Source: a virus (taxonomy: Duplodnaviria > Caudoviricetes). From it: a stretch of DNA of 64,000 nt. Made by a program: the position numbers and the translations under genes. This document shows, piece after piece, positions 7,099 through 63,953 of the stretch. Location: positions 14,464 to 78,463 of IMG/VR virus record IMGVR_UViG_3300028907_000004, one strand, 5' to 3'. The notes below the pieces were generated by a model. That model did no database searches and was not told the DNA's origin. It was given only the letters and a program-made list of their open reading frames with translations. Positions within the stretch are counted from its first letter, which is position 1. Each line of letters opens with the position of its first letter.

Positions 7099-7545
7099 AT
7101 GACTGTTCGCCGTGTTTTCACTATCCTTAATTTCATCGAAGAGGCAATGAACGAAACCCTTCAACATGCAAGTTCCGCTAATCGGGCGAAGATCGCAAAG
7201 TCGCAGATGAAGGTGATTGCGTGGCTGGAAAAGGCGAGGGCAGCAACTCGTGAATTTCACGGGGATTATCAAGAAATTTTACCCACGCCCTATTTCCCGA
7301 AAGCCCCGAAGACGGAAACAACCATCATCAACGCAGCACTGGCGTTGGCTGAAGATGTTTGGTTCTACATGCGGACGAAAAAGATGATGTGTACAAAGGA
7401 AATGAAGTCTGCGTGGAATCGTATGATTGCCGCCCTCGTTTCCCTGTTTTCCCACTATGACTCGGAGTGGGAAGACTGTGCGGGTCAAGTTACGGGCCTT
7501 GCGTTGGCCCGTAGAGCTTGGAACTCCGCCAGCAGGAGGCCCTGA
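7099..7545 (+). CDS. hypothetical protein
   Basis: 148 aa, AGGAGG RBS, divergent from terminase. Confidence 0.7.
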   Translation: MTVRRVFTILNFIEEAMNETLQHASSANRAKIAKSQMKVIAWLEKARAATREFHGDYQEILPTPYFPKAPKTETTIINAALALAEDVWFYMRTKKMMCTKEMKSAWNRMIAALVSLFSHYDSEWEDCAGQVTGLALARRAWNSASRRP

Positions 7546-7847
7546 TGCGACGTTCTATCAAAATCACGCTTCGCGCTTACGCCGTCTTGTGCGCGTTGTT
7601 CGCCCTTCTGGCCGTTACGTCTTTGTGTAAGGCAGAAACCTTTGAATATAAGGTTACGGGAATCAACCTCAAAACGCAGGAACGTGTAGTGGGGCATATT
7701 ACGGACTCTGCCCAAAACGGTACTGTGTCTGGTATGATTTGGGATAGAATGGGCGTGTATCCCGTTGAAGGGATTTGGGCCGGGAAAGGCCGAATGCGTC
7801 TTTACAGCACATTGTCCTCATTTACCGTGGATGTGGTAGAAGAATGA
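7545..7847 (+). CDS. hypothetical protein with signal peptide
   Basis: MRRSIK + hydrophobic stretch + cleavage-like CKA-E; TGATG coupling. Confidence 0.65.
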   Translation: MRRSIKITLRAYAVLCALFALLAVTSLCKAETFEYKVTGINLKTQERVVGHITDSAQNGTVSGMIWDRMGVYPVEGIWAGKGRMRLYSTLSSFTVDVVEE

Positions 7848-8035
7848 GCTGGGGAGTTTTTGAAATCTACGGTACAGGGGGCATTATTGTAGAAATACAC
7901 ATAATCCCCTGTACCAGAGAAGGGAGAGTGTATAAAGGCCACGATATTTCCTGTTTTTGCGGCTGCTGCCCTACCGTAGACCCCGAAACAGAACCCGGAA
8001 AACCGCCGATTTTCCATCACCACCAACTACATTAG
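7844..8035 (+). CDS. small Cys/His-rich hypothetical protein
   Basis: ATGA overlap; CFCGCC and HHH motifs. Confidence 0.55.
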   Translation: MSWGVFEIYGTGGIIVEIHIIPCTREGRVYKGHDISCFCGCCPTVDPETEPGKPPIFHHHQLH

Positions 8036-8043
8036 AGGCAGCT

Positions 8044-8253
8044 ATGGAATATCTACTTTCCCTGGGGACCGTATATGGGCTTCTATGTTTGTACGCTTTT
8101 TCGATGGAATCCTTGCGGCGTAGAAGTCCTTGGAAATTCATAATCATTTTTTCCCTTATGTTTCCGGTCCTGTTAATCATTTATTCAATATCAGAGCTTC
8201 GACAGTATAAGAGGAGGAGGAGGAATGGGCTTAAACAAAACCAGAACCCCTAG
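8044..8253 (+). CDS. small two-TM membrane protein
   Basis: two hydrophobic segments, GAGG RBS. Confidence 0.55.
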   Translation: MEYLLSLGTVYGLLCLYAFSMESLRRRSPWKFIIIFSLMFPVLLIIYSISELRQYKRRRRNGLKQNQNP

Positions 8254-8428
8254 CGACCCGGCCCCGGATTGGGTGGGTAAGACTTACGGGGCGCGTATCG
8301 TGGACTGTATCATTCAATTGACGTTATTCGAAATCATTAGTGAGGATGAAGCAAAGCGGCTGTTCCTCCGTGTCGATAGATGGAGAGAAGAGGCCGAACA
8401 ACGAGAGGGCAAATCAAATGTTACCTAG
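8225..8428 (+). CDS. hypothetical protein
   Basis: GGAGGAGG RBS, 67 aa. Confidence 0.6.
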   Translation: MGLNKTRTPSDPAPDWVGKTYGARIVDCIIQLTLFEIISEDEAKRLFLRVDRWREEAEQREGKSNVT

Positions 8429-8510
8429 AAACTTTGTAATTGGGCTGATGGTTGCGCTGGTACTCATAGTTGGTGCTGTTTGGTGTAACACATATTTTTG
8501 TATGAACTAG
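8418..8510 (+). CDS. 30-aa membrane peptide
   Basis: MLPRNFVIGLMVALVLIVGAVWCNTYFCMN, GAGG RBS, fills the intergenic gap. Confidence 0.45.
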   Translation: MLPRNFVIGLMVALVLIVGAVWCNTYFCMN

Positions 8511-8518
8511 GGGGCACT

Positions 8519-8779
8519 ATGCAACATACCCCTAATACCTATATGGGGCATAAAATCATCATAGACGAACGGTGTGACGTCTATGATGATGTTCCGATCC
8601 GCACCCATAGGAAAAAACGCCTTCGCAAGAAGTTCCTCAAGAAGTACGGAACGCGAAAAGTGCTGGTAGCTACCGACGCCTATATGACGAAAGGCGGGGC
8701 GATCATTATGAGCCCACATATGTATAACGAGCTTTGCAAATATACTACTTTAGTAAATCCGACAGGAGGGTTATTCTGA
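8519..8779 (+). CDS. hypothetical protein
   Basis: 86 aa, basic central patch, operon packing. Confidence 0.6.
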   Translation: MQHTPNTYMGHKIIIDERCDVYDDVPIRTHRKKRLRKKFLKKYGTRKVLVATDAYMTKGGAIIMSPHMYNELCKYTTLVNPTGGLF

Positions 8780-9066
8780 TGTGGATTATTGATAACGACC
8801 TCATCAACGACGTCAGGGAAGAAGAAACAATCAATCGGGAAGGGGTCCATAGTTCTGATTTTGACCCGATTATGTTTATGGAGATGGAACGGGTTCCGTG
8901 GCGCGTAAAAGATGATGACGGCGAAATCTACTATGAAGGCCGCATGTCAAAAAAGCGTTTGGAAAGCGAAGCCGAACTGGCTTTTGGCCCTCTTGATTTC
9001 GCTATGGCTGATGCCGGGGCCACCACTATGGAATATCTCGAAAACGGGGAATGGGTTCAGTTATGA
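8779..9066 (+). CDS. hypothetical protein
   Basis: GGAGG RBS, TGATG coupling, WRVKDDDGEIYYEGR motif. Confidence 0.65.
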   Translation: MWIIDNDLINDVREEETINREGVHSSDFDPIMFMEMERVPWRVKDDDGEIYYEGRMSKKRLESEAELAFGPLDFAMADAGATTMEYLENGEWVQL

Positions 9067-9347
9067 GCGAAATTGCGAAGTGTCCGTTATGCGGTAAAGA
9101 TGTTAAAAGGTCTATTTGGCGTCCAGAATATGAAGGCTGTGCTGGTAGCGTAGTAGTCACTGTAAAGTGCTGCGGAATGGAAGCATTAACTGTCGAACTT
9201 TGGAACCAGTACGCTGCTGCGATGGATTACGCAAAGAAAACTGCTTACTGGTTCAGCCTCCCTGACAGCATCCCTCATTCAGATGACGCACGCGCAGAAA
9301 AAGCAATGGAGAATGCTGAAACTCGCGTCTTGGAGGTATTCCTATGA
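9063..9347 (+). CDS. CxxC-containing hypothetical protein
   Basis: ATGA overlap, KCPLCGK. Confidence 0.6.
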   Translation: MSEIAKCPLCGKDVKRSIWRPEYEGCAGSVVVTVKCCGMEALTVELWNQYAAAMDYAKKTAYWFSLPDSIPHSDDARAEKAMENAETRVLEVFL

Positions 9348-9604
9348 GCGATAAGAAACAGCCCCCTCTCAAAGTGGTTCCCCTCCATGAATCGAATTAT
9401 CGAGACATAGTGGCTGCTCTTCGGCTTGTAGCCGATCAAATCGAAAGGGGCGAGTTTGGTCAGGTAAATGATTGCGCGATGGTTCTACAGGGGCCGACTT
9501 TCGAAATCTTTCATATGGGTGCCGGTAATGCAGAAACCGCCCATCTACTTTTTGCGTGCGCGCAACGTAAATTTGAATTGGCAGTACTTGATCATTATGA
9601 ATAG
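9344..9604 (+). CDS. hypothetical protein
   Basis: GGAGG RBS, ATGA overlap. Confidence 0.65.
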   Translation: MSDKKQPPLKVVPLHESNYRDIVAALRLVADQIERGEFGQVNDCAMVLQGPTFEIFHMGAGNAETAHLLFACAQRKFELAVLDHYE

Positions 9605-9614
9605 GAACATTGCC

Positions 9615-9785
9615 ATGAGTAAGAACGAACTTCTTGACGATCTTACTTTTGTTGAAGTCTTTGATCCAGTTTACAAGTATCAAAGGAAAATACCGTTGAA
9701 ATGGGAAGTCGGGCAAATTGAAATTCCTGAACCTTCCCCGGAACATAACGGCTATGGCGTGGTAACAGAACACGATCTTGACTAA
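9615..9785 (+). CDS. hypothetical protein
   Basis: AGGA RBS, 56 aa. Confidence 0.5.
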   Translation: MSKNELLDDLTFVEVFDPVYKYQRKIPLKWEVGQIEIPEPSPEHNGYGVVTEHDLD

Positions 9786-9798
9786 AGGAGTATCATTT

Positions 9799-10131
9799 AT
9801 GAATCAGAAACTACAACAGGCCCTCATCCGCCTTCTGGGGCGCAAATTCCTCATCGTAGCCGGTATGCTGGCATCAACGCACTGGCTTATGAACTACAGC
9901 CGTATTGATGCCAATACCTATATGTATGTCATACTGGGAACAGTAGCCGCCTACATCACCGGTAACGTCACCCAGAACATCAAGCTCTCCTCTTCCTCCC
10001 AATCAGAATCTCTTCAAATCAAGAACACCGTTGGCGATGTATCTTCTACAACTACCGTTTCCCTCTCTCCCGACGAAGTAGACGCCATCGTAAGCCAAAT
10101 CAAATACACCCTAGGTAAACGCAATTCCTAA
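9799..10131 (+). CDS. holin-like two-TM membrane protein
   Basis: GRKF + TM + TM ending YITGNV; AAGGAG RBS. Confidence 0.5.
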   Translation: MNQKLQQALIRLLGRKFLIVAGMLASTHWLMNYSRIDANTYMYVILGTVAAYITGNVTQNIKLSSSSQSESLQIKNTVGDVSSTTTVSLSPDEVDAIVSQIKYTLGKRNS

Positions 10132-10158
10132 TCCCCGCCTAGTTTTCCTTCCCCTCCC

Positions 10159-10199
10159 AAGGGTGGCGTATAAAGCAAACATACGCCACCCTTCCTTTT
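10159..10199 (+). terminator. intrinsic terminator
   Basis: 13-bp perfect stem AAGGGTGGCGTAT/ATACGCCACCCTT followed by CCTTTT. Confidence 0.75.
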
Positions 10200-10639
10200 C
10201 TCTAAAAATACCCATATTTCCTTCATCGTCCCATAACAAATCAAATCATATCGAAATCCGCTAAAAATAAGAAATTCTTTTCTACTGGACTTCTACATAA
10301 CTTCAATCTACTTTTACCGCCTACGAGAAGAAGAAAAAATACCATTTTATCATGTCTTACTCGTTCCATAAATCATAAAGAAAGAAAAACATTATTTCGA
10401 AAACGAAAAACACCCCAAAATATATCCCAATAACTGCTTATTTTTGCCTACCCCTTTTCGTATACAGGGGTGGGTTGGTACTTATTTTTCATTTACTATG
10501 GACCACCCACCAAGTACCTTATTTCCATATCCAAAATACCGACAAAATATCGTCAGGTGGGGAGTTATTTACGTTTTCATATGTGGGACAACCCAAGTAT
10601 CATTGTTTGGTATTCGTTTTATTGGCTCGGAGTTCAGAG

Positions 10640-11230
10640 GTGGGGGTCCCGCCGGAGGGGGGTGGGGGCTCATTGGTGTGTGGGGTGGGGGTGTGGCCAG
10701 CGCCATGCGTAGGGGGTCCAGGAAGCGTGCGGCGAGAGCTTTTGGCGTATGGTATGGCTCATGATACCGATGCCGGAGAATGCCAAAGACGTGGCGTAAA
10801 TGGCGTGTGCCTAGGTTTGGCTAGGACGTTGGTTGTGGGTCCTCCATGGCGTATGGTATGGAGTTTGAGGTCGGGCATCATACGCCATCAGATACGTGGG
10901 CAGAATGGGGTCCGAATTATCCCGTGGGCCGTGGGGTCCGTTTGGAGTGGAGGGTGGATGGCCGCCCCCTCCAACCCCGATACCACAGACCCCCGATCTG
11001 AAACGGACCCCGCCAAGAAGGGGGTCCGACTTCCTCTGCCCCCTACGAAGTCCACCTGCCTTCCTACCATCTATCCATAATCATTCCTTGTAGCCATAAG
11101 GGGGTCACGCCTTCCTTCCTCGGAGGTCCGGGTCATATCCCTTCTTGCTAGTCATTATCATTCCTACTATGGGGCCATGGGCAAAAAGAAGGGGTCCGAC
11201 ACACCCTTGCCGGACCCCGTAGGACTATGG
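10640..11230. repeat. non-coding GGGGTCCG/CGGACCCC repeat block 1
   Basis: multiple motif copies, G-rich then C-rich halves, no credible ORF. Confidence 0.75.
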
Positions 11231-11245
11231 AAAAATGGTCTACGT

Positions 11246-11332
11246 CTACGTGATGGCGTAAAGCGCCAGAATGATGAATATCTGCGTGGCTAGGAAGGCC
11301 AGCTGGGCGAAGCGTTGGATGGATATGTTCAT
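11246..11332 (-). CDS. 28-aa hydrophobic early peptide
   Basis: AAGGAG RBS then MNISIQRFAQLAFLATQIFIILALYAIT. Confidence 0.5.
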   Translation of the reverse strand: MNISIQRFAQLAFLATQIFIILALYAIT

Positions 11333-11357
11333 GGTGTTCTCCTTGGCAAATACGTGG

Positions 11358-11789
11358 CTAATATACGGTGAGGCCCGATTCCAGATTGTAACTGGCGTCA
11401 TACGGGGTGACGGTATCGCGCTGGATGTACGCTTCCGCAGACGTTTCCGGACCCGCTTCACGGACCTTCCGTTTGGCGTAAAGCAAAGCATCTCTGCAGT
11501 TGGTAAAAGATACGGGGTCCGACTTTACTACACCGCCTTTCTGGCCATAGTACGTGATAACTACCACGTAGGGCACCGCCTTCTTGTGCGGCTTGATAGT
11601 AGGTGCCGTGAAATAGTCTGCTATGATATTTGATTCCATTTGCGAAAGAAGGGGGCACCGAGCAACTTCTATGGAAAATGCGAAGCAAAGACGCTTCCGG
11701 ACTTCCCTATTATAGTCCTTGACCTGGGGGTTGACCAAAGTAAAGGAAGCGTTGATGAGAGAAGTGGTGTTAGAGTAGATGGCTTTCAT
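11358..11789 (-). CDS. early hypothetical protein
   Basis: GGGAGA RBS, 143 aa. Confidence 0.6.
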   Translation of the reverse strand: MKAIYSNTTSLINASFTLVNPQVKDYNREVRKRLCFAFSIEVARCPLLSQMESNIIADYFTAPTIKPHKKAVPYVVVITYYGQKGGVVKSDPVSFTNCRDALLYAKRKVREAGPETSAEAYIQRDTVTPYDASYNLESGLTVY

Positions 11790-11822
11790 GGTTTTTTTTT
11801 CTCCCGTAGTATGGATGGTTGG

Positions 11823-12227
11823 TTACAAAAAAACGGTCTCTGCCTTGTTGCTTTCCAATCTATGGGCAAAAAGCTCCATAGTGTGAGCGTCAAAGTAGAA
11901 AGAACCCACCAACGCTCCATTAGATCCACCGTTTACCAGGGTCCATGAAAGGTGGACGGCCACGCCAAACTCCATACGGTCGTTGTTCTTGAGTGCGTTA
12001 TAGATCGTGCCCGTCAAGCAGACTTCCTTGAATATGGAGCGGAAAAGAGAAGGAAGGGGAAGCGGGGTGGACTTGAAGACCATATTCTTGACCTTTCCCC
12101 ACCCCGCTTCCTCCACAGAGAAGTCAATACCGTGCCCGTGAAGCGTCTCTGCGGAGAAGTCCGGACCTAATGCGTAGGGAAGAATGGCGGCCAGGTATCT
12201 GTATTCAGCGGGGGTCTGTGTAGTCAT
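11823..12227 (-). CDS. early hypothetical protein
   Basis: CCAAGGAGAAAATCATG start context, 134 aa. Confidence 0.7.
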   Translation of the reverse strand: MTTQTPAEYRYLAAILPYALGPDFSAETLHGHGIDFSVEEAGWGKVKNMVFKSTPLPLPSLFRSIFKEVCLTGTIYNALKNNDRMEFGVAVHLSWTLVNGGSNGALVGSFYFDAHTMELFAHRLESNKAETVFL

Positions 12228-12253
12228 GATTTTTCTCCTTGGTTTTGTGTAGT

Positions 12254-12544
12254 TTAGTAGGCGGTGCGGTACGTGGCGTGAAGGTCCCAAAGGTGGTTCG
12301 CTTCTTCCTCTTCAAGCGTGATCTGCCAATCGGGGTCCGTGACTTCCGTTTGCGTCCCATCGGGGTCCGTGCGGCGCAGGTAGTTTGGACGGGGGTCATT
12401 CACGTCAAAGGCGGTGCGCTTCCGGACGGTATAAAGCACCATGCCGGTGGTGGGGTCCGTGATACCAAAAAGCGTGAAACGGAAGCGTCTGTCTGATGTT
12501 TCGTAGGTCCGCAGGATGGTGATGGTGGAGGCGTCTATTTCCAT
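12254..12544 (-). CDS. early hypothetical protein (Asp-Pro rich)
   Basis: AAGGAGCAAAAATCATG; several TDP/RT segments encoded by the CGGACCCC motif. Confidence 0.7.
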   Translation of the reverse strand: MEIDASTITILRTYETSDRRFRFTLFGITDPTTGMVLYTVRKRTAFDVNDPRPNYLRRTDPDGTQTEVTDPDWQITLEEEEANHLWDLHATYRTAY

Positions 12545-12594
12545 GATTTTTGCTCCTTGGGGTCCGGACCTTCCCCGGACCCCGTTTGGGTGTG

Positions 12595-13158
12595 CTAGTT
12601 GATTTGACCCGCTTCGCGCAGAGCGTCTATAAGGTCCGCCAACCTTCCCCGATGGCCGTCATGCTCCAGACCGGGGGTGTGAAGCACGCGCAAGAATTCT
12701 TGAAGGTCCGCCACGTAGGCGGTCAAGGCGGCATGGTTTTCCTGATACTTTGCGATGGCCTCTGCGGTCTCTACGGCGTGTTCCCGCATCATCTGCTCCT
12801 CCACCGCCTTCTCTGCCGTTTCGATGCCTGCGATGAAGGTCCGCTGCGATACGATGTGGGACTTGAGCATATCTATGGCGGTGGAGAGTTCAACCCAGCC
12901 CACCCGCTTCTTGCTCGTGAGTTTATAGAAAGCGTCCGTTTCGTAGGAAGCAAACGTGCCGTATGCGATGATGGCCCCGGACTTACACCGACCGTCCTTG
13001 GCCATATCCGAAATAATCTGGTCATTCGCACGCTTGGTAGCAACCAAGCCATTCGGATTCAAGAGGTGAAAATGAGCCTTCTCCCAATTAGACCATCCGG
13101 AAGCGGGGGCAGTAGCCGTCCGTGTAACCATTTCCCATCTGGATTCGTACTTGCTCAT
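12595..13158 (-). CDS. early hypothetical protein, C-terminal coiled coil
   Basis: AAGGAGCAAATCATG, 187 aa. Confidence 0.75.
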   Translation of the reverse strand: MSKYESRWEMVTRTATAPASGWSNWEKAHFHLLNPNGLVATKRANDQIISDMAKDGRCKSGAIIAYGTFASYETDAFYKLTSKKRVGWVELSTAIDMLKSHIVSQRTFIAGIETAEKAVEEQMMREHAVETAEAIAKYQENHAALTAYVADLQEFLRVLHTPGLEHDGHRGRLADLIDALREAGQIN

Positions 13159-13632
13159 GATTTGCTCCTTGAACCCCCTTTCGGGGTCCGGTATCGGTGT
13201 GTGTTATGGGTCCCTTTTAAGGGACTTCCACAAAGAAAGGCAAGTGGAAATATAGGTATAGAACCAAAAAGTCCAAAATAATTCCACTTGATTTTTCTAT
13301 AGGTATGATTGAAAAATATCATAGATATTTTGGAAAAAACTGGATATTTGCGCTTGACTTTTTTGATCAAACGCGCTCGCCAACAGAAATGGCCAAATCC
13401 GCAAATAGGACCACCCAGGCATATCATACCCCTATTTTCATCATAGAACCACTTTAGGCATCATCACTTTCTAGCCACAGAAATGGACTTTTCCGGCATT
13501 TTGGCTTTTTTCGAGCTTTTTTGATCATAGAGAAAAATTGCCAGAAAAGCACAAATAGGCGGCAAATACGGCATGTGAAGATTTGCCTTTTTTCATGGGT
13601 CATAGTAACTGAAAAAAGAAAAAACGCAGAAT

Positions 13633-14490
13633 CATTTCGGACTAGGGAAGTCCGAATGGGAGGTGTATCAGACCAGAAAGGTCCGAATGAAAATTCATAC
13701 GGCAGGGGTCCGAATTATGATATCAGACCAGAAAGGTCCGAATCATGAAAGCGGACTTCCCTAGTCCGGATTGAAAACCATACTGCGGGGGTCCGGTATC
13801 GCGGCCATTTCGTACTAGGGAAGTCCGAAAGCAGACACCATGCTGCAGGACGGTGCCCGTGTGTAAATACCGGAAGGGACCCCCGGAAGCGGACGGTGAC
13901 GGACGCTGCAGCATGCTGCAGGACGGTGTCGGGGTCCGTCCGCTTCCGGACCTTCCGGACAGCACGGTGTCGGACGGTGTCGGACCCCCGGAAGCGGACC
14001 CCGTAGGACCCAGGACCCCTGGCCACGCTGGGTCCGGAAGGGGTCTGCCGGAAGGCCACATACACTGGAAGTCTGCCCCCTTGGTGCCGGAAGGCCACAA
14101 ACGCCATCACCCGCGCCAAGGACCCACCGGAAGGCCACATACACCACAGGTCTGCAGGCATTCGGACTTCCCTAATCCGAAAAGCACCAAAAGCCATAGG
14201 GAATGAGGGGAAAAGCACCAATTTTCCCCATAGCCAATTTTCCTACACATTTTTATAGGTGCCACACCACGTAAAGGGCACCGACAAAAAGAAGGGGTCC
14301 GCTTTCCCTACGGGGTCCGCTTCATTTCCACCCTACGTCAAATCATTCGCAACCTAGTCCGCTTCCGGACCTTTCGGACACCCCCGCTTTCCTACGTCAA
14401 ATCATAGACCAAAAAGAAGGGGTCCGAACCCTTCCCACGGCCAGACCCCTTTATTGTTTCCATACTATTGGGCAACCTAGTCCGAAAGCT
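13633..14490. repeat. non-coding repeat block 2 (dyads, direct and inverted repeats)
   Basis: CGGACTAGGGAAGTCCG x4 (two with one mismatch), TATCAGACCAGAAAGGTCCGAAT x2, CCGGAAGGCCACA x3, CCTACGTCAAATCAT x2. Confidence 0.85.
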
Positions 14491-14773
14491 CCATAACACA
14501 ATCCCATTCTCCATATGCCTTTGACGCACCGTAATGCGGGTGGTTGTGTATATAGTCCAAAGAGGAATGTACAGCAAGGAAGTCCGCCACCTGAAGGCCA
14601 GTAAGTCCCGCCGCTTTGTATTCCATCACTTTTTCCTCTGCCTTTCGGCCAAGGTCCTCCACTGTTTTGGCCACAGTATAGTTCAAAAGCGCACGGACTT
14701 CTCCGGCAGTTATGGCCATTCGCTCATCGGATTCCATCAAACGCAGACGTTCATACAACTCTTTTACGGTCAT
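14477..14773 (-). CDS. early hypothetical protein
   Basis: GGAGG RBS, 98 aa. Confidence 0.65.
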   Translation of the reverse strand: MTVKELYERLRLMESDERMAITAGEVRALLNYTVAKTVEDLGRKAEEKVMEYKAAGLTGLQVADFLAVHSSLDYIHNHPHYGASKAYGEWDCVMELSD

Positions 14774-14819
14774 TTTTCTTCCTCCATTCAAATAATCAAA
14801 CAAAATATAATGGGGTCCG

Positions 14820-15056
14820 TCACGTTTGTAGTGGCCTGTTATAGTGCTGGACAGCCTTGTTATACAACTTGTATGCGTGGTCTATGCGCTTTGCCGTACC
14901 AAATAGAGTTTGGAAAGCGGGTGACCGGAAGGCATACACCCGATACACGCCACCGTCATAGACTAGGTTGATCACCACGCCGTCCAGACTATTCGGAAGC
15001 GCAGTGCTGATGCCCAATCCTGCTTTGAATTCGGAAGGTCCCAGTGGGTATCGCAT
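14820..15056 (-). CDS. early hypothetical protein
   Basis: GGAG RBS, 78 aa. Confidence 0.6.
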   Translation of the reverse strand: MRYPLGPSEFKAGLGISTALPNSLDGVVINLVYDGGVYRVYAFRSPAFQTLFGTAKRIDHAYKLYNKAVQHYNRPLQT

Positions 15057-15059
15057 AAT

Positions 15060-15365
15060 TCACTCCACACGGTCAAATATCTTGATAGGATGGGAGAAGG
15101 GGAAGCGTGAGTCACTACTGTACAGGAAGTTGCCCCCAAACATATAATGCCGTCCGCTTCCATAGTCCGATGGCGCTGCTATGTAATCCCTGAATTGCGG
15201 ACGGAAATGGAGGTGTAACACGCTTTCCCTTCCTTCCGTTTCGAACACAGGGGGCACGTTTGTCCCCACAAGAATGACGGCGTGGTACCGCGAAGACACC
15301 CCGCCATTCGTACAATCGCCCATATTGCTGGGCCGATACACTGTACATAAAAGTCCTGTGGCCAT
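15060..15365 (-). CDS. early hypothetical protein
   Basis: DCTNGGVSS...MFGGNF motifs typical of small phage early proteins. Confidence 0.65.
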   Translation of the reverse strand: MATGLLCTVYRPSNMGDCTNGGVSSRYHAVILVGTNVPPVFETEGRESVLHLHFRPQFRDYIAAPSDYGSGRHYMFGGNFLYSSDSRFPFSHPIKIFDRVE

Positions 15366-15366
15366 A

Positions 15367-15555
15367 CTACACCCCCGATATAGGTTGGAGTTCATTTTCT
15401 TCTACAGCGTACCAAGGCGCATCGTGCGGAGTTATGTGGTAACATGGACCCCTTTGCTCCATAACACAGTCCACTATGGTTCGCACCCCATTATCACGTC
15501 CATAACTATTGACCCAGTGGACTTTCTGGCCTGGTTTGTACTTGAAAGTGCCCAT
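15367..15555 (-). CDS. small SH3-like early protein
   Basis: FKYKPGQKVHW pattern, GGAG RBS. Confidence 0.55.
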   Translation of the reverse strand: MGTFKYKPGQKVHWVNSYGRDNGVRTIVDCVMEQRGPCYHITPHDAPWYAVEENELQPISGV

Positions 15556-15556
15556 A

Positions 15557-15934
15557 TCATTCTCCATAACTTGCTGGAATAGGTTCACCCGATATATCGC
15601 AGAACAGCATATCATCTTCGTAGTTAATGTCCACGGCCACAATACGGTTCAATGTTTTTCTTTTAACATTGTCCAATTGCGTCTTCAGGTCCGACAAACA
15701 GCCTTTAAAAGACACGGCATAGCCATCATTGGTCACGAAGTACATCTGGTATCCACCCGGCCAGGCATACTCGCCAGCGCGCAACGTGGCCTTCAGGTCT
15801 GCCGTAGTGTTGATGGTACGGTGTGTTTGTTTATAGTTATGGCGCAGGGGTGCGCGGGTGCTCCAACTAGGGGTCCGGGTATCGTACAAGCCCCCATCGC
15901 TTTCGCTGATAAAAAAGTGCTCCGGAAGGTTCAT
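15557..15934 (-). CDS. early hypothetical protein
   Basis: YAWPGGY-MYFVTNDG motif, 125 aa. Confidence 0.65.
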   Translation of the reverse strand: MNLPEHFFISESDGGLYDTRTPSWSTRAPLRHNYKQTHRTINTTADLKATLRAGEYAWPGGYQMYFVTNDGYAVSFKGCLSDLKTQLDNVKRKTLNRIVAVDINYEDDMLFCDISGEPIPASYGE

Positions 15935-15936
15935 GA

Positions 15937-16164
15937 CTACACCGCCTTGTTTACTATGGTTGAAATTTCACGTTCAAGAAAAAGGGCATACTCAACCCCT
16001 TCCAGGAACACCCCACTATCGCGCTGCCACTTCCTGGCCTTCCGGATTGCTCTTTCTGTTACGTTGAACCTTCCGGACACCGGCCACAAGTGCGAGGTAT
16101 CCGTTTGCCGGAAGCGGGCATTTATCTGGCGTTTGGTCATACTGTTCCAGGGGCTGCTTACCAT
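15937..16164 (-). CDS. early hypothetical protein
   Basis: AAGGAG RBS, 75 aa. Confidence 0.6.
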   Translation of the reverse strand: MVSSPWNSMTKRQINARFRQTDTSHLWPVSGRFNVTERAIRKARKWQRDSGVFLEGVEYALFLEREISTIVNKAV

Positions 16165-16179
16165 GTATGTCTCCTTGGC

Positions 16180-16476
16180 TCAATAGCCATCATCGTAGTC
16201 ATCCGGATACATTCCGCCAGACACGGGGTCATTTTCGTCCGGAAGGTGGGCCGTGCTTGCCTGGGGCGCCAGCGCTTTGCTAGTCCAATTTTCTGCCGCT
16301 TCCGGATATTCGGCCAACGCTGCTTCCTCTGTTTCAAAATTGTCCAGGAAGCAAGTCACCGTTTGCCCCGCCAACACGCTGTCCGGCGGCATTTCCTTGA
16401 AGCCAACTACGTCCACCCCGCCATACTTTCCCTGGCGCAGGGAAAGCCACAAATACTCTTGGTCATTACTAGGCAT
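16180..16476 (-). CDS. acidic early hypothetical protein
   Basis: AAGGAG RBS, first gene downstream of promoter P1. Confidence 0.7.
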   Translation of the reverse strand: MPSNDQEYLWLSLRQGKYGGVDVVGFKEMPPDSVLAGQTVTCFLDNFETEEAALAEYPEAAENWTSKALAPQASTAHLPDENDPVSGGMYPDDYDDGY

Positions 16477-16516
16477 TGTCTTTCTCCTTGGTTTATTTTC
16501 CGACTCACATGCCTTT

Positions 16517-16564
16517 TATATACGTCTGACCCTGTGAGAAGTCAAGGACTTTTCTTGATATCTT
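16517..16564 (-). promoter_or_regulatory. early sigma70-type promoter P1
   Basis: TTGACT(16545-16540)-17 bp-TATATA(16522-16517). Confidence 0.8.
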
Positions 16565-16570
16565 CTATTT

Positions 16571-16795
16571 TTATTTGATACCGGACGATGGGCGGAAGGT
16601 CCCTTTATCAAAATACATCGAGTTGCGGACCCCTTGTTTCACTGGCTTTTTGCGGTACAGCTCCCAGTGGCTTCCGGCATCGCGGACCCCATAGTTGGAC
16701 ATAGTGTCTCCCAAGAATTTCATGTTGTTTCTGCTGAAGAAAAGGCCATTAGGGTGCGCGCTTTCATACTGGCGCTTGAGCTCATATGGGGTCAT
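16571..16795 (-). CDS. early hypothetical protein
   Basis: FFSRNNMKFLGDT motif, AAGGAG RBS. Confidence 0.65.
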   Translation of the reverse strand: MTPYELKRQYESAHPNGLFFSRNNMKFLGDTMSNYGVRDAGSHWELYRKKPVKQGVRNSMYFDKGTFRPSSGIK

Positions 16796-16818
16796 GATAT
16801 TCCACTCCTTGCGTTTGC

Positions 16819-17520
16819 CTATGCGGCAGTTTTGACCATTACGGGGCACAGCCTACTCAATGAATTGGTGAGGTGCTGTAGCATACTATCCATTTCCTCT
16901 GCGGCCCAACTCTGCCCAACAATACCCCACACTGATTCTCCAGGTCCCTCATCGTATATTACACCATCATCATCGCATTCGGGGTCCGTGTGGTCGATGT
17001 GATACGTGCCCACTTCTACGCCAAATACATCCCCATTCAAATACGATATGTATTCATCTATTTCCAGTTCCATGTATCTGCGTGCCTTCCGGTACGCTGC
17101 CGGACCTTTGCCCCATTCCTTCTTTATTGTCTCCGGAGACATGTAGAAAATGGCGTCGTGTGCCCATTCTACTGGGCTGGCGAAGTCCCCAAGCACGCAA
17201 GCGTCCGGATCAATAGGAATGACGAGGAAGCCAAGTTGGCGCGCAGTAGCCACAAGGACTTCGATGTCAGAGAAGTCCCTGAATGCCTTGCTGTCTTCGT
17301 CTTCCCAACCTGCCCGGAAGCGGGGGTGACGTCGGACTTCCGTCAAAAGATTGTACCTGCTGGCGTGCTTGTCCGTGTGAACGTCGGTACGGGGTCCCAG
17401 ACCCAAAAGCGTAGTCGCGCAATCCATCATCGTCCGTGGGTTGGTCGGCCAGGGGTCACGAACAACCTTGCCGTACACTCCACCCTCAAACACGGTCATT
17501 ACGGTATTGCGATCAGACAT
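16819..17520 (-). CDS. early hypothetical protein
   Basis: 233 aa, AAGGAG RBS, YLNGDVFG motif. Confidence 0.7.
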   Translation of the reverse strand: MSDRNTVMTVFEGGVYGKVVRDPWPTNPRTMMDCATTLLGLGPRTDVHTDKHASRYNLLTEVRRHPRFRAGWEDEDSKAFRDFSDIEVLVATARQLGFLVIPIDPDACVLGDFASPVEWAHDAIFYMSPETIKKEWGKGPAAYRKARRYMELEIDEYISYLNGDVFGVEVGTYHIDHTDPECDDDGVIYDEGPGESVWGIVGQSWAAEEMDSMLQHLTNSLSRLCPVMVKTAA

Positions 17521-17845
17521 GGCCATTCTCCTTGTTAGTTTGGGCCGATTTATGGCCGCAGGGGGTCTCATTGAACATCAGGGCAAAAAGGGGTCTGCCA
17601 TTGGATTTGAGCTGGACTTCGATGATGGGCCATTCGTCTGATACCTTGACCCTGCCCTTGCTCCACTGGGACAGCTGTTCCATTTTCCGGAGAAGGGACA
17701 GAACACGGCGGGGGGTGATGTCGTCTTCGCCAAAGACGATGTCCCGCTCAACGATGTAGGACGCATTCCACGTCCAACACCCTTCTTCCTTCCAGGCATC
17801 AATAGACACCAGGTCCGCTTTGAAAAATCGTGCTTCCTTTGCCAT
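17513..17845 (-). CDS. early hypothetical protein
   Basis: AAGGAG RBS preceded by motif hairpin. Confidence 0.65.
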   Translation of the reverse strand: MAKEARFFKADLVSIDAWKEEGCWTWNASYIVERDIVFGEDDITPRRVLSLLRKMEQLSQWSKGRVKVSDEWPIIEVQLKSNGRPLFALMFNETPCGHKSAQTNKENGHV

Positions 17846-17903
17846 GACGTCTACTCCTTGACGGGGGTCCGGAAGGTCCGGACCCCCTGTGTTGTGTTCC
17901 GAC

Positions 17904-18509
17904 TTACTTGGCACCGGCCACCGCCTTGGCCTTCTTGACGTCGGGGAAAGTGGACTTGATCAGCGCGGTGGTGTACTGGTAAACCGTGCGTGCGATGGTG
18001 CCCGCCTTCTCTCCGGTGTACTCTGCGATTTCACGGCTGATGGGCCAAGTGAAGGCAGACGCCAAGTGGCTGCGATTGACCTTTTGGCCTTGCGGGGTCC
18101 GTGCGGCCAAATCGGCATACGCTTCCTTGCCCTTCCGCTTGACGTCCAGCGCCACAGCGCACTGGCCGCACAGATACTTTCCCCGTCTCTTGAGCTCTGC
18201 GCCGGCACCACACTTCTCGCACTGGTGGGCTTCCTGCGCGGGGGTGACGGGGTCCGCTTCCTTCTTTGCTGCCGCCTTGGGCTTGCCTTCCTTCTTGGTC
18301 GGTGCGGGGGTGACGACTTCCTGCACGGGCGTGGGCTCCAGTGCGAGCAGGACAACTTCCGCATCGACGTGGGTGTCACCGAAATGATCGGTCAGTGCGG
18401 CACGCTGGGTGGCCAGGTTGGCTTCCTCGGGCACGTCCACCTTGTAGTGGTTGATCATGGCGGTGGCCTGGGACTTGTTAACACGGTTCAGATTCACGGA
18501 CTTGGACAT
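17904..18509 (-). CDS. early Lys/Ala-rich protein with CxxC...CxxC
   Basis: AAGGAG RBS; CEKC...CGQC; phage-like codon usage. Confidence 0.75.
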   Translation of the reverse strand: MSKSVNLNRVNKSQATAMINHYKVDVPEEANLATQRAALTDHFGDTHVDAEVVLLALEPTPVQEVVTPAPTKKEGKPKAAAKKEADPVTPAQEAHQCEKCGAGAELKRRGKYLCGQCAVALDVKRKGKEAYADLAARTPQGQKVNRSHLASAFTWPISREIAEYTGEKAGTIARTVYQYTTALIKSTFPDVKKAKAVAGAK

Positions 18510-18571
18510 GGCTTGCTCCTTGGGTTGGTGGTTGGTTTTTGTTTTCTTCCTTCTTCGTCTCACTTGCCCTT

Positions 18572-18619
18572 TTTATAGGGGTTTGTGCCGGAGAAGTCAA
18601 GGACTTTTCTTGATATCTT
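18572..18619 (-). promoter_or_regulatory. early sigma70-type promoter P2
   Basis: TTGACT(18600-18595)-17 bp-TATAAA(18577-18572); 29 bp identical to P1. Confidence 0.85.
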
Positions 18620-18631
18620 GAAAATTATTTT

Positions 18632-18766
18632 TTACAGGGCAAATCCGACTACCACGAAAAGTGCGATCAAAATCAAATACAGGGCCAGGACAAAAGGGCC
18701 ATCTTCGTCAAGAAACGGTCCGGACTTGCGGCGAAGTCCTACGGTGCCTTGGTAAAGCGTGCTCAT
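18632..18766 (-). CDS. small membrane peptide
   Basis: 44 aa with C-terminal TM segment. Confidence 0.45.
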   Translation of the reverse strand: MSTLYQGTVGLRRKSGPFLDEDGPFVLALYLILIALFVVVGFAL

Positions 18767-18767
18767 G

Positions 18768-19022
18768 CTAGTAGCCCCGCCGCATGCCGGCAATCTTGCC
18801 TTCCGGAGTGATGGTGATGTCCTTGAGGTACCCACCGCGAATGCGGACCCAATCACCCGATTCGGTGCGGACTTCATACCGGATGGACCTGGCCTGAATC
18901 TTGAGGCGGTACTGCCTGCCCCCTTCTTCCTTCTTCAGGTTGCCATATCGGTCACGAGTGTGCCCACGACCTTCAGCCCAAGCGTAAATTTCACGGACCT
19001 TTTTTTCATTCTTGGTGCTCAT
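18768..19022 (-). CDS. early basic hypothetical protein
   Basis: AAGGAG RBS, 84 aa, first gene after P3. Confidence 0.7.
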   Translation of the reverse strand: MSTKNEKKVREIYAWAEGRGHTRDRYGNLKKEEGGRQYRLKIQARSIRYEVRTESGDWVRIRGGYLKDITITPEGKIAGMRRGY

Positions 19023-19065
19023 AGTCTTACTCCTTGAAGGTTGTTTTCTTGATCCAGATGCCCTT

Positions 19066-19100
19066 TTTATAGGTATGAATTGGGGAAAAGTCAAGGACTT
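19066..19100 (-). promoter_or_regulatory. early sigma70-type promoter P3
   Basis: TTGACT(19094-19089)-17 bp-TATAAA(19071-19066), same AAGTCCTTGACTT context. Confidence 0.85.
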
Positions 19101-19359
19101 TTTTGGACTTCCCCAAAAATAAATTTACTTTTTCCACTTTTTTCTTTCGGCATCATTTCCGGCATCATAAAAAAGGCGCATACCTTTATCCAAGAAAAGT
19201 CCTAGCATGCGGGATTGCCCACTTTCTGCGCGTTGATTTTTGGGTCATATTGGAGCGAACCAGCAAAAGCTCCAAAAGTATCCGGATACAGGAATGCCCC
19301 ACCGTGGTCAATTTTTGGCCCTTCCTGCCGGAGACCAAATTTCACCAGGGTGTAGCTGG

Positions 19360-19780
19360 TTGCCGGACCCCTTCCGGACCCCTATATTGTGACGGAAGGG
19401 GTCCGGACCCCGTAGGACTTCCGGACCCCCGCTTGTGCGGCTTGTGTTTGTAAGTCCTAGTAGGTCCGGAAACGGACCCCGCTCATTGACACGCCACCGG
19501 ACCTTCCGGACCCCCTGGGCCACGCCCACGCAAGCTCCAGACCCCGCACATGAGTGGGACCCCTGGTGGCGTGGGCGTGGGACCCCGCCACCTATCAGTA
19601 ATGATTATGGTTAGCGGCGCAGGGTCCAGGAAAATTCCATCCCCCACCATTTCCCACAATTCCAACCCTACCTACAAATTCTAGTAGCACCCACAGAACT
19701 CTAAAGCACCACACAACAAAAGACCCTACACCACCCTATAGCACGCAAACAGGAATCGGGACAACCCGGACCCTGTGAAA
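19360..19780. repeat. non-coding CGGACCCC repeat block 3
   Basis: about 11 GGACCC/GGGTCC copies incl. perfect palindrome GGGGTCCGGACCCC at 19398-19411. Confidence 0.8.
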
Positions 19781-20345: not shown

Positions 20346-20954
20346 ATGCCTAGAAACACCCGCCCCGGATCAAAAACCGTAGACCCTACCGGATCAACCG
20401 CCTTCAAGCGTTACGAGTTGTACATTCACGCCGCTGTTCGGTCCTTCAATCACACTACCGGGATTGATAAGGACGAACTCTATGGGGCGGCACGCGAAAT
20501 CTACGCACGTGCCCTCAAGTTCTACAAGCCGCAATCCGGCAAGCCCTTCGGGTGCCTCCTGTCTACTATGCTCAAACTTGAGCTCATCAACTTCTGCGAT
20601 CAGTACCGCCGTCAGTTCAATCGAAACATCAAAGATACAGACCAGCGCATGTTTGTAAACATCGACTGGTGTTCTGCCGAAGCCGGGGATGAAGAGAATT
20701 TCCCCGAAAACATGGCCTATATCAGTCAAGAAGATTTAGGGTTTAGAGAGGTGGAGTTTAATGAGAAACTCCAACAACTCTCCGAAGCCGCGCAACGACT
20801 TGTAAAAGATTTAATGGGAGCCACCACAGAGCCTACCCGTCGGAACGGGCCGGAAGATGTGGCCAGATTCGCCAAGAAATATCTTGGCTGGAAGCTGAAA
20901 GACGCCAGGAAAGCCGCAATAGAAATCAACACTATGTTATTCGTGGAAGGTTAG
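20346..20954 (+). CDS. phage sigma-70 family factor (probable)
   Basis: region-2-like DKDELYGAAREIYARALKFYKPQSGKPFGCLL; AAGGAGG RBS; TTGACT at 20276. Confidence 0.6.
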   Translation: MPRNTRPGSKTVDPTGSTAFKRYELYIHAAVRSFNHTTGIDKDELYGAAREIYARALKFYKPQSGKPFGCLLSTMLKLELINFCDQYRRQFNRNIKDTDQRMFVNIDWCSAEAGDEENFPENMAYISQEDLGFREVEFNEKLQQLSEAAQRLVKDLMGATTEPTRRNGPEDVARFAKKYLGWKLKDARKAAIEINTMLFVEG

Positions 20955-34719: not shown

Positions 34720-35160
34720 ATGGCCAAGAAAGAAGCACCCAAGACCACGAAGAAAGCCGCCCCCGCCGCCAAGAAGACCGCCGCCAAGAAGACCGCCGCC
34801 AAGGGCAAGCCCACCGGCAAAGAATCCATTCTCGACAAGGCCCGTGCCGCACGCGAAGCCGCCAAGGAAAACGCCCAGGCGTCCATCTCCAAGGACGGCC
34901 TTCTGAAGGAAATCGCCAAGAAGCTGGGCATTGCCAAGGACGACGTTCAGACCGTCGTTGACGCCTTCCTCGACGCCGCCGGACAGCACCTGGCCGCTGG
35001 CGAGAAGGTCAGCGTCCACGGCTTCGGCATCTTCAACACTTCCGTCATGGCTGCTCGTGACGGAGTCAACCCCCTGACCGGCGAACCCATGCACATCGCG
35101 GAATCCACCCGCGTCACGTTCAAGGCTTCCACCGCCCTGAAGGAACTCGTCAACGGGTAA
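34720..35160 (+). CDS. HU/IHF-family DNA-binding protein with Lys/Ala-rich N-terminal tail
   Basis: VSVHGFGIF...ARDGVNPLTGEPMHI...VTFKASTALKE. Confidence 0.92.
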   Translation: MAKKEAPKTTKKAAPAAKKTAAKKTAAKGKPTGKESILDKARAAREAAKENAQASISKDGLLKEIAKKLGIAKDDVQTVVDAFLDAAGQHLAAGEKVSVHGFGIFNTSVMAARDGVNPLTGEPMHIAESTRVTFKASTALKELVNG

Positions 35161-44198: not shown

Positions 44199-44210
44199 AA
44201 GGAGTACAGC

Positions 44211-45512: not shown

Positions 45513-45527
45513 GCAAATAAGGACTCC

Positions 45528-63765: not shown

Positions 63766-63953
63766 TCGCCCCACCAAACGATGTTCTGGCCGGTGATTTC
63801 CCTAGACCCGAAAAGCATCGGGATTTCAGCCCCGGCGGTGGCGATGGCCTTCGCTTCGATGGTCCCAGGCTTCGGCGAGTCGTATTTGACCTTGGGCCGG
63901 AAGATGTAGCCGATGACCAGCGATGCGACGAAAAAACCGAGTTCGATCCACAT
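63723..63953 (-). CDS. small tail assembly protein
   Basis: EIPMLFGSR...NIVWWGD..IKKKGGKK. Confidence 0.8.
   Translation of the reverse strand: MWIELGFFVASLVIGYIFRPKVKYDSPKPGTIEAKAIATAGAEIPMLFGSREITGQNIVWWGDTHTVAIKKKGGKK

Follow-up and report, generated by a model that had tools for sequence, protein, structure and literature searches.

A short asymmetric word repeated throughout the early block of an uncultured siphophage, possibly a docking site for a DNA-binding protein

Comparison with described systems

Chi and KOPS are short words of bacterial chromosomes that are strictly polar and occur genome-wide. In T4-type phages, the PeSL (promoter-early stem-loop) cassettes of Arbiol et al. 2010 are reportedly possible recombination junctions. 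In cluster A mycobacteriophages, which are temperate, one protein (L5 gp71 and relatives) is thought to stop both initiation and elongation at the stoperators, 13 bp sites that are found genome-wide and whose orientation strictly tracks transcription and is required for function (PMC9283540). The first-step-transfer block of T5 is a proven terminal repeat of approximately 9-10 kb, with small pre-early genes, strong host-type promoters and large untranslated stretches rich in repeats, inverted repeats and palindromes, and its injection stop signal has 8 DnaA boxes (bioRxiv 10.1101/866236).

The DNA studied here belongs to an uncultured lytic siphophage with a genome of approximately 75.5 kb, of which a stretch of 64,000 nucleotides (the window) was analyzed. 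The features of its word-rich segment are collected in Table 1. Family scans placed none of the approximately 14 genes of this block in a Pfam or PHROG family, and the block resembles a host-takeover module.

The word, the octamer GGGGTCCG/CGGACCCC, resembles the stoperators in being one short asymmetric sequence present in dozens of copies in transcribed blocks. Stoperators occupy promoters and short intergenic gaps; here, 27 of the 37 octamers of the block are intergenic, with some next to a -10-like box or between genes, and 10 are inside genes. Unlike the stoperators, the word has 6-8 bp, is limited to one 9-kb block, occurs many times in genes, and has a polarity that is reversed or absent in the relatives L139 and L140; its reader is putative. 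Lysogeny genes were not found either, given that no integrase, repressor or partition families were detected among approximately 50 scanned phage proteins (part of the ORFs).

An earlier note on this DNA had raised the possibility that the block enters the cell first or forms a terminal repeat, with the word bound by a protecting or pulling protein; the first-step-transfer region of T5 would be the model for this. Its layout is T5-like, with small early genes without relatives, strong promoters of the host sigma-70 type and large untranslated, repeat-rich stretches, and the phage carries T5/T4-like recombination genes (Rad50/Mre11-like, RecA-like, flap nuclease). Against this, the closest cultured terminases (25-37% identity) are those of Pseudomonas phages of the PaMx25/JG054 group and of Salmonella siphophages such as SETP7, which we take to be headful packagers; the terminase small subunit also has an Sf6-type match, a weak one under Pfam's cut-off. 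Contig ends differ in position across four assemblies, and the assembled record closes on itself within a tail gene. In contrast to the T5 block, the segment has no DnaA boxes: TTATCCACA with up to one mismatch occurs 10 times in the window (11.7 by chance) and 0 times in 10.1-20.3 kb. To our knowledge, T5 has not been described as saturated with one octamer. The hints on first-entering or terminal DNA are indirect and weak, and lean against this origin, which is considered unlikely.

Table 1. Positions in the window of the word-rich segment and its features.
Feature	Position	Strand	Description
Word-rich segment	10400..19900		leftward early block and three non-coding stretches; 61 GGTCCG/CGGACC including 37 octamers
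Non-coding stretch of converging blocks	10132..11250		plus-strand terminator ~10160-10205, AT-rich part, G-run tract 10640-10700
Hairpin	11004..11028		CGGACCCC-N9-GGGGTCCG; zone of converging gene blocks
Intrinsic terminator of leftward block	11191..11218	-	stem GGGGTCCGG.../...CCGGACCCC, then TTCTTTTT
Small genes (~14)	11358..19022	-	from coding-potential scan, translations, ribosome-binding sites
Genes, first seven	11358-11789, 11823-12290, 12254-12544, 12595-13158, 14477-14803, 14820-15056, 15060-15395	-	
Genes, last seven	15557-15934, 15937-16164, 16180-16476, 16819-17571, 17513-17842, 17904-18509, 18768-19022	-	
Stretch of ~212 bases	12340..12559		present here, absent from L132; flanked by direct octamers (12332, 12559)
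Hairpin between genes	12559..12583		9-bp word stem, just upstream of AAGGAG RBS of gene 12254-12544
Central non-coding stretch	13160..14480		top word density (27 GTCCG/CGGAC); CGGACT-N5-AGTCCG dyads, AT-rich part
Terminator-like hairpin	14414..14436	-	ends CGGACCCC then TTCTTTTT; partner arm with G-U pair
Early promoter copy 3	16517..16549	-	repeat family D1
Hairpin between genes	17863..17887		GGGGGTCCGGA-AGG-TCCGGACCCCC, just upstream of AAGGAG RBS of gene 17513-17842
Zinc-ribbon/helix-turn-helix-like early protein	17904..18509	-	CxxC...CxxC; conserved C-terminal three-helix part
Early promoter copy 2	18572..18604	-	upstream driver of gene 17904-18509
Early promoter copy 1	19066..19098	-	AAAAGTCC-TTGACT-N17-TATAAA
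Inverted repeat, 14 bp	19363-19406		surrounds -10-like TATATT (TTGCCG-N17-TATATT, 19360-19388)
Word cluster, divergent control region	19363..19515		7 octamers
Palindrome GGGGTCCGGACCCC	19398-19411		divergent control region

Enrichment and form of the word

Outside the segment, which has 37 octamers, the genome (66 kb) has 5, four of them in the window (4551, 24910, 35832 and 50576) and one in the remaining 11.5 kb. All 37 lie in 10640-19780, as 23 GGGGTCCG and 14 CGGACCCC, and the same interval has 55 GGGTCC/GGACCC. Taking the rest of the genome as reference, 0.8 octamers would be expected, and 300 dinucleotide shuffles of the region give 0.66 (maximum 4). The hexamer GGTCCG/CGGACC shows the same behavior, with 61 copies in the block versus 6.7 +/- 2.6 in dinucleotide shuffles, approximately 10-fold over chance, and the variants AAGGTCCG (13 versus 0.8 expected) and GGAAGTCC (10 versus 0.2 expected) are enriched too. 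Within the 14 predicted genes, 8 octamers are found on the sense strand, versus 1.5 under synonymous-codon shuffling (400 shuffles, maximum 4), and control genes covering 27 kb have 2.

The earlier note had reported approximately 55 and 37 copies, the four outliers in the window, an expectation below one octamer and frequent variants; its counts agree with those obtained here. It had also named two outcomes that would speak against it, the loss of the enrichment under a codon- and composition-preserving shuffle and a uniform motif density genome-wide, and what was found is that the enrichment stayed under dinucleotide and under synonymous-codon shuffling and that it is confined to the block. 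The note had placed the core at the non-palindromic GTCCG, but the unit common to the relatives is the hexamer GGTCCG. It had also seen the motif as shaping coding sequence, but the word is mainly non-coding given the number of intergenic copies.

The word is a short unit and not a piece of a longer repeat, the sole long repeat family being the three-copy promoter. Base conservation, examined from -60 to +50, reaches no further than approximately 2 bases from the hexamer on each side. The usual form is RRGGTCCG(G): the base ahead of the hexamer is preferably a purine, a G frequently follows it, and in this strain the form is mostly GGGGTCCG. Of the one-base variants of the hexamer, those altered at the strict positions 2-3 (G, T) stand at 0.2-0.5 fold, while AGTCCG, GGTCCC and GGTCTG are 3-4 fold enriched. 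Judged from these frequencies, the graded tolerance looks like that of a binding profile. A bipartite promoter for a sigma-like protein of the phage was considered and rejected, since the 61 aligned sites have no information and no positional 4-mer outside -2 to +8.

The earlier note had also suggested a host restriction or methylase system. An AvaII-type site (GGWCC) is present in the word as GGTCC, many bacterial genomes have few copies of the octamer, and part of a candidate base-hypermodification gene set was confirmed in the phage (radical SAM enzyme, dCMP deaminase, dNMP kinase), all of which would suit a target, decoy or preferred site of restriction-modification or of phage base modification. 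Nonetheless, the classes GGNCC and CCGG are not enriched and GGCCC stands at 0.4 fold, restriction sites are usually avoided, the reverse of what is seen here, and the targeting of the block alone is left unexplained. The suggestion therefore finds no support, and a role of this kind is very improbable.

Conservation, turnover and strand among relatives

The confinement of the hexamer to the block is repeated in related phages. Versus dinucleotide shuffles, L132 has 48 copies in the block (5.1 in shuffles) and 4 in the flank (4.9), L139 has 42 (4.2) and 3 (4.3), and L140 has 15 (3.1) and 4 (2.7). In relatives down to approximately 73% DNA identity, the density in the blocks is 2.4-6 per kb, and outside the block it is at chance level. 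At close range, comparison with L132 gives 97.1% identity for the bases of the octamers and 88.9% for the background, and in blocks of approximately 94% identity 22 of 23 sites are intact where approximately 14 are expected (0.94^8 per site). By this comparison of sequences, the sites are under purifying selection with respect to L132. At approximately 73% identity, 6 of the 28 alignable hexamer sites are in place, with a neutral expectation of approximately 4 (0.735^6 per site). The fact that the density is kept while the sites turn over means that selection acts on the number of copies and not on their position. The longer form preferred around the hexamer also differs between relatives.

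These observations bear on the view that the word has no function and is a by-product of a foreign module's oligonucleotide usage or of mutation bias. Other words do deviate in the block (GAAC/GTTC 36 versus 98 expected; GGTG/CACC enriched), as such a bias would produce. Yet the 10-fold excess over dinucleotide shuffles persists under codon shuffling, the sites are better conserved than their flanks, and their density is held through turnover, which makes this view very improbable.

The gene content of the block varies among relatives, and the word together with the repeated promoter could serve as microhomology for module swaps in a hypervariable early block. The block is like the PeSL regions in that respect, with small genes without relatives, reiterated early promoters and shared stem-loops. 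Unlike the PeSLs, which are cassettes of tens of bases at gene borders, it has a bare word of 6-8 bases with many copies in genes; the three 69-nt promoter copies and the shared-stem hairpins are not joined into one unit, and the word is mostly found by itself. The direct octamers on both sides of the stretch missing from L132 fit such exchange. Homology breakpoints with L132, L139 and L140 have a median distance of 39-47 nt from the sites versus 71-73 nt for random positions (p = 0.05-0.19), several of them within 0-8 nt of the word. This statistic is weak, and also biased, since conserved islands are where alignments tend to stop. A word of eight bases is, however, very short for homologous exchange, which would also leave the copies in genes, the purifying selection and the palindromes at the promoter unexplained, and recombination may follow from the word without being its purpose. 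It is quite unlikely that recombination is what the word serves.

Approximately one third of the octamers are found in strong hairpins, as terminator stems, as hairpins between genes or as palindromes of the divergent control region, with two thirds unpaired. This would suit a signal at the RNA level, in the stems of terminators, in stabilizing or processing hairpins near ribosome-binding sites, or as a target that an RNA-binding protein or a nuclease recognizes; T4 RegB, for instance, acts on GGAG. Three of these lie directly upstream of an AAGGAG ribosome-binding site and two or three are followed by a T-run. The features of an intrinsic terminator, a GC-rich stem and then a run of T, are present on the minus strand at 11191-11218 and 14414-14436, few of the 37 copies. 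The hairpin at 17863-17887 is identical in L127 and L132, and in L139 both arms are altered together (GGGTGTCCGG...CCGGACACCC), which means that at some sites pairing matters, instead of or besides sequence. In addition, all 8 octamers counted within the predicted genes read CGGACCCC in the mRNA. This sense bias is nonetheless inseparable from constraints on coding, as codon shuffling predicts 0 antisense copies. The stem sequence is common to all hairpins, though any GC-rich stem would fold and structure alone needs no shared stem sequence. Furthermore, the single octamers at 10907 and 10933, which are kept in L132, lie between convergent terminators, a place in which transcription should be scarce, and the strand of the word relative to transcription is reversed or lost in L139 and L140. 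That the word is an RNA-level signal is, given these points, unlikely. In L139, the counterpart of the central non-coding stretch has tandem GGGTCC repeats.

The orientation of the octamers is 22:8 to the left of 19.2 kb and 1:6 to the right, and for the unpaired copies it is 18:4 (p = 0.004) and 0:5, so that in this genome the G-rich strand aims at approximately 19.2 kb from both sides. The switch in orientation proposed in the earlier note is thus present here, but the strand bias, 27:10 in the window and 23:9 in L132, is lost in the more distant relatives L139 (10:20) and L140 (6:5). Known Chi sites are G-rich and of 7-8 bases, as is the word, and the polarity of this genome would be that of Chi-like or other one-way sites at which a nuclease is halted or a translocase is guided after entering, near 19.1-19.36 kb, at a DNA end. 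The word is also like Chi and KOPS in being selected for density and not position, in and out of genes, but unlike them it is block-limited and its polarity is not conserved, as L139 and L140 show. Across 151 sampled Pseudomonadota genomes, which may not include the host of the phage, the octamer is usually rarer than its reversed control, with a top ratio of approximately 1.5, and never clearly over-represented. Sites of this kind are very unlikely. From the sequences compared, a strand bias that is not conserved fits better with recognition of duplex DNA than with an RNA signal or a one-way process.

Possible reader and use of the word

The fact that related phages keep the density while single copies come and go indicates that some protein probably reads the word. 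Our preferred reading, which is a tentative one, is that the word is the docking site of a double-stranded-DNA-binding protein that marks or shuts off the early block through a network of operators or roadblocks. The earlier note had proposed sites selected for a protein, and this agrees with the confinement to the block, the selection seen against L132, the kept density and the graded variants, from which a reader is inferred. The reader would most likely be a regulator of the phage, made early or mid-infection and sequence-specific on double-stranded DNA. It would have approximately 60 sites, as single copies in genes and leaders, direct pairs, GGTCCGGACC palindromes, both arms of intergenic hairpins, and copies against the -10 of the rightward promoter in the divergent control region. 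Occupancy of these sites would mark the block alone, with transcription shut off or insulated as the presumed effect, and a subset of the copies would double as stems of terminators and intergenic hairpins.

Two further observations favor such a docking site. CGGACCCC directly adjoins the -10-like TATATT both in the window and in the relative L127. The 10-bp palindrome GGTCCGGACC is limited to the block, where the genome has all 3 of its copies, and L127 and L139 have it in their control regions as well.

As to which protein may read the word, the product of gene 17904-18509 is a speculative candidate on the basis of its predicted sequence features; no fold match was found for it, and its presence in the relatives is a consequence of how these were found.

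Counting against a docking site, no reader beyond this speculative candidate came out of the analysis. The block has three identical sigma-70-type promoters, in 69-nt repeat copies (family D1), and the word is absent from the core of all three, which also counts against it. Half-sites are found at many spacings and helical phasing is absent, which a classical dimeric repressor would not usually show.

Shut-off is one among several possible uses of a region-marking protein. A more general proposal, which we regard as doubtful, is that the word is a region-identity code, in which approximately 5 copies per kb of 6-8 bases are maintained through turnover in the early block only. If this were true, a dedicated protein would tell the block from the remaining phage genome and from host DNA, and the block could be spared from the phage's attack on host DNA or silenced at the switch to middle genes. 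Similar words noted in the early regions of unrelated phages (WGACCCC, CCGTGC and TTATCGGAC), if they are likewise block-limited, would then be parallel examples that use different words.

Enrichment and placement of the word

The word has the hexamer GGTCCG/CGGACC as its core and takes longer forms, among them AAGGTCCGG, the octamer GGGGTCCG (with CGGACCCC on the other strand) and the 10-bp palindrome GGTCCGGACC; GGGGTACG is their non-word control counterpart, and TTATCGGAC is a word outside this analysis. Between 10640 and 19780, GGGTCC/GGACCC occurs 55 times and the exact octamer 37 times, both as counted in the earlier note, and the positions that it gave for four octamers elsewhere in the window were also reproduced exactly. 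Given that the remaining genome holds only one more octamer, which makes five outside the segment versus 37 within, the density of the word is not uniform genome-wide. The claim that this enrichment does not result from composition or codon choice holds as well, since dinucleotide-shuffled versions of the segment contain 0.66 octamers (maximum 4) and 6.7 +/- 2.6 hexamers, versus 61 hexamers observed, and synonymous-codon shuffles give 1.5 octamers (maximum 4 in 400), versus eight observed in genes. Control genes spanning 27 kb contain two octamers. When k-mers are compared without bias between the segment and the remaining genome, CGGACCCC/GGGGTCCG ranks first (37 versus 0.8 expected), followed by the related words GGTCCGGA, AAGGTCCG, GGAAGTCC and CCGGAAG.

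When the 61 hexamer sites are aligned, the information is confined to positions -2 to +8, reading RRGGTCCG and then a weak GAA, with no second box within -60 to +50. One-base variants at hexamer positions 2-3 are reduced to 0.2-0.5 fold, while the tolerated variants AGTCCG, GGTCCC and GGTCTG are enriched 3-4 fold, and this graded tolerance is what a binding profile would be expected to give. No enrichment was found for GGNCC and CCGG tested as classes, nor any helical phasing between site spacings, and the literature returned the octamer in primer sequences only.

A scan using codon usage trained on the long genes of this genome gives a minus-strand coding signal at 11.3-13.2, 14.5-14.8 and 15.5-19.0 kb and none at 10.13-11.25, 13.16-14.48 and 18.9-20.3 kb. 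The genes of the block are small, with AAGGAG-type ribosome-binding sites and no Pfam or PHROG family among them. The leftward direction of these genes and of their promoters, which form the sole long repeat family in the segment, sets the block apart from its neighbours, a small set of rightward genes (7518-10131) on one side and the replication module, also rightward and starting at about 20346, on the other. No Rfam RNA family was found in 7-21 kb. In the convergent non-coding stretch at 10210-10900, some 400 bp are AT-rich and are followed by a G-run tract (10640-10700), judged by eye to be prone to G-quadruplexes; there are also GGCGTATGGTATGG repeats, and the contig of the near-identical relative L133 stops inside the stretch, at 10467. 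The stretch is a possible origin or packaging site.

The word had also been proposed to shape the coding sequence, and this stands for the eight sense-oriented octamers in genes, which mostly read Thr-Asp-Pro and exceed the codon shuffles, whereas 27 of the 37 octamers are intergenic. About a third of the octamers are paired in strong hairpins (see the table). A 96-residue reading frame at 12254-12544 (minus strand) has three in-frame octamers read as Thr-Asp-Pro-Asp/Thr; relative L132 lacks most of it, owing to the loss of about 212 bases lying between two octamers.

Promoters and inverted repeats of the early block (window coordinates)
Feature	Position	Strand or direction	Description
Sigma-70-type promoter AAAAGTCC-TTGACT-N17-TATAAA	19098, 18604, 16549	leftward	three strong copies
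Terminator with word stem	11191-11218	-	hairpin
Terminator-like hairpin	14414-14436		hairpin
Hairpin in convergent zone	11004-11028		hairpin
Hairpins between genes	12559-12583, 17863-17887		each immediately upstream of a ribosome-binding site
14-bp inverted repeat	19363-19406		encloses -10-like TATATT

Conservation of density and turnover of sites among relatives

Environmental relatives were found by protein searches: L133 (99.99% identical), L132 (85-94% DNA identity), L140 (about 79%), L127 (74-79%), L139 (about 73%; a contig of 75,457 bases) and L141, whose zinc-ribbon protein is 45-52% identical to that of the window. The word is enriched in every relative that covers the block, with 48 hexamers versus 5.1 expected in L132, 42 versus 4.2 in L139 and 15 versus 3.1 in L140, and it is at chance level in the flanks. 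Compared with L132, octamer bases are 97.1% identical over a background of 88.9%, and in blocks of about 94% identity 22 of 23 sites are intact versus about 14 expected (0.94^8 per site, by hand count and arithmetic). Between these two genomes, perfect and imperfect copies replace each other by single changes at the same positions. Compared with L139, just 6 of the 28 hexamer sites that can be aligned persist, when our own arithmetic (0.735^6 per site) gives a neutral expectation of about 4, and the 42 hexamers of L139 lie mostly in new places and mostly have the AAGGTCCGG or GGGTCCGG form, not GGGGTCCG. Near-neutral retention of sites together with a maintained number of hexamers indicates that selection maintains the density of the word and not its position. 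The region of L139 that corresponds to the central non-coding stretch of the window (L139 14856-15070) takes the word to a local extreme, with GGGTCC repeated in tandem.

To the left of 19.2 kb, the unpaired copies have orientations of 27:10 for hexamers (p = 0.008) and 18:4 for octamers, and to the right the ratio is 0:5 for octamers. The orientation switch described in the earlier note is real in this genome. L132 has the bias too, but is itself closely related; in L139 (10:20) and L140 (6:5) the bias is gone or reversed. Given that the bias flips among relatives that all keep the density, polarity is unlikely to be essential, which argues against strictly one-way readings of the Chi-like, KOPS-like or L5-type roadblock kind. 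A signal read in mRNA is likewise disfavoured, because the transcripts of the relatives would carry opposite words. A Chi-like role is further weakened by the fact that the octamer is not over-represented in any lineage among 151 sampled Pseudomonadota genomes, a sample that may not include the lineage of the host.

In many genomes, including the Nitrosomonas eutropha contigs (10 versus 72), GGGGTCCG falls far below its reversed control, and in some complete genomes the listed octamer copies lie on one strand over long stretches. As for the host, the tail protein gave only two matches, both of 40%, to a Nitrosomonas eutropha contig and to a contig of a Myxococcales genome bin; neither genome has a portal relative, and both match the DNA polymerase only weakly (about 32% identity, E ~1e-15).

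Several further candidates were rejected. Distant relatives found through the SNF2 helicase (L001-L004 and L129-L131; 31-38% identity) have another gene layout and no comparable word, and phage MW202621, whose terminase is the closest (61% identity), has no comparable block or local word. Scanning viral contigs for two nearby octamers gave about 120 loci but no relative with a similar block; the loci are chance matches or repeats in coding sequence with a period of 27-39 bases, the repeats being read as collagen-like. The GGCCCGG of L141 (8 versus 1.0 expected) was not counted as co-evolution of word and reader, given that it was chosen post hoc and consists partly of Gly-Pro codons.

Possible roles of the word

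Together, the results fit a duplex-DNA word that would be read by a sequence-specific protein at about 60 sites, all within the early block and its control regions. In the window as in L127, the octamer CGGACCCC adjoins a -10-like TATATT, and the divergent control regions of these two and of L139 contain palindromes; GGTCCGGACC itself has three copies in the block and none in other parts of the genome. These sites, along with the hairpins between genes, speak for a network of operators or roadblocks by which the early block would be marked and shut off or insulated, a tentative reading, somewhat short of probable, in which a putative protein on some of the copies would affect transcription of the block. 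The product of gene 17904-18509 (minus strand) is only a candidate for the reader: it combines a zinc ribbon with a C-terminal helical part that is strongly conserved and resembles a helix-turn-helix, but no PDB sequence matches it significantly, and its model has no clear counterpart among known folds. That the relatives have this protein is a consequence of how they were searched for. If a reader exists, a simple pull-down could identify it.

Part of the word set works through pairing, as indicated by the hairpin at 17863-17887, both arms of which changed together in L139, and by two or three copies that are genuine terminator stems. Recombination may also use the word as microhomology, perhaps as a side effect, given that direct octamers flank a stretch of about 212 bases that differs from L132 and that homology breakpoints lie somewhat closer to sites than random positions do.

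To our knowledge, the ways in which lytic phages shut off or protect their first-expressed genes are known in few models, and little is known of the DNA signals behind them. If the word marks the block for protection or for wholesale silencing, it would bear on how a DNA segment that enters early comes to be handled differently from all other DNA in the cell. As an example, the breakdown of host DNA by T5 takes place at a stage when the cell has received no more than the first 8% of the phage genome (bioRxiv 10.64898/2026.04.02.716235). Functionally, the cluster A mycobacteriophage stoperator network (PMC9283540) comes closest among described systems; this word differs from it in not following the defining orientation rule, in being shorter, and in its restriction to one block of a phage with no sign of lysogeny. 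The layout of the segment resembles the first-step-transfer region of T5 (bioRxiv 10.1101/866236), and this analogy keeps alive the reading of the block as possible terminal or first-entering DNA; nonetheless, DnaA boxes are absent, and neither the terminase relatives nor the scattered contig ends lend support. No description was found in the literature of an early block of a lytic phage that is kept saturated with a word of 6-8 bases through turnover. The case is clean and testable: a short word confined to one gene block, with measurable selection on it, that a group of environmental relatives also carries.

The phage and its genome

The source record is a single virus contig of 78,463 bases, of which the window covers 14464-78463. 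Its two ends (1-2911 and 75553-78463, the latter being window 61090-64000) align without gaps at 83% identity, with 506 mismatches in 2911 bases, which indicates that the assembly, having gone once round a circle of about 75.5 kb (the genome), continued into a strain variant. From the alignment, the overlap looks like a circle closed in this way and not like a true terminal repeat. No similar DNA was found in cultured phage records in near or distant search modes.

The genome encodes a portal, a large terminase, a weak Sf6-type small terminase and a GTA-like tail protein, as well as an SNF2 helicase, a primase, a DnaB-like helicase, SSB and a family A DNA polymerase that carries a fused UDG domain. 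The clamp loader gene carries an intein, and of two radical SAM-like genes one is clear and one weaker. Further genes encode an HU-like protein (34720-35160), RecA-like, flap nuclease, ligase and Rad50/Mre11-like proteins, and others a dNMP kinase, a dCMP deaminase and MazG. No lysogeny gene turned up among the scanned proteins.

The rightward module opens with a gene (20346-20954, plus strand) for a 202-residue protein with a sigma region 2-like pattern, and the top Foldseek rows for its low-confidence model (pLDDT 61) are ECF sigma factors (SigH, SigL, RpoE, sigma-28), aligned over the full length at E ~0.1. From this weak resemblance, the protein may be a phage sigma factor. CCCGGG occurs once and ACCGGT four times in the 75.5 kb, which suggests avoidance of particular restriction sites, and GAAC/GTTC is depleted inside the early block only (36 versus 98 expected). 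At about 44100-45400, a plus-strand reading frame with long acidic and basic repeats, Asp runs followed by Lys-Pro-Lys-Ser, overlaps a long minus-strand frame without family (43653-45704), and of the two the plus-strand one is probably the real gene.
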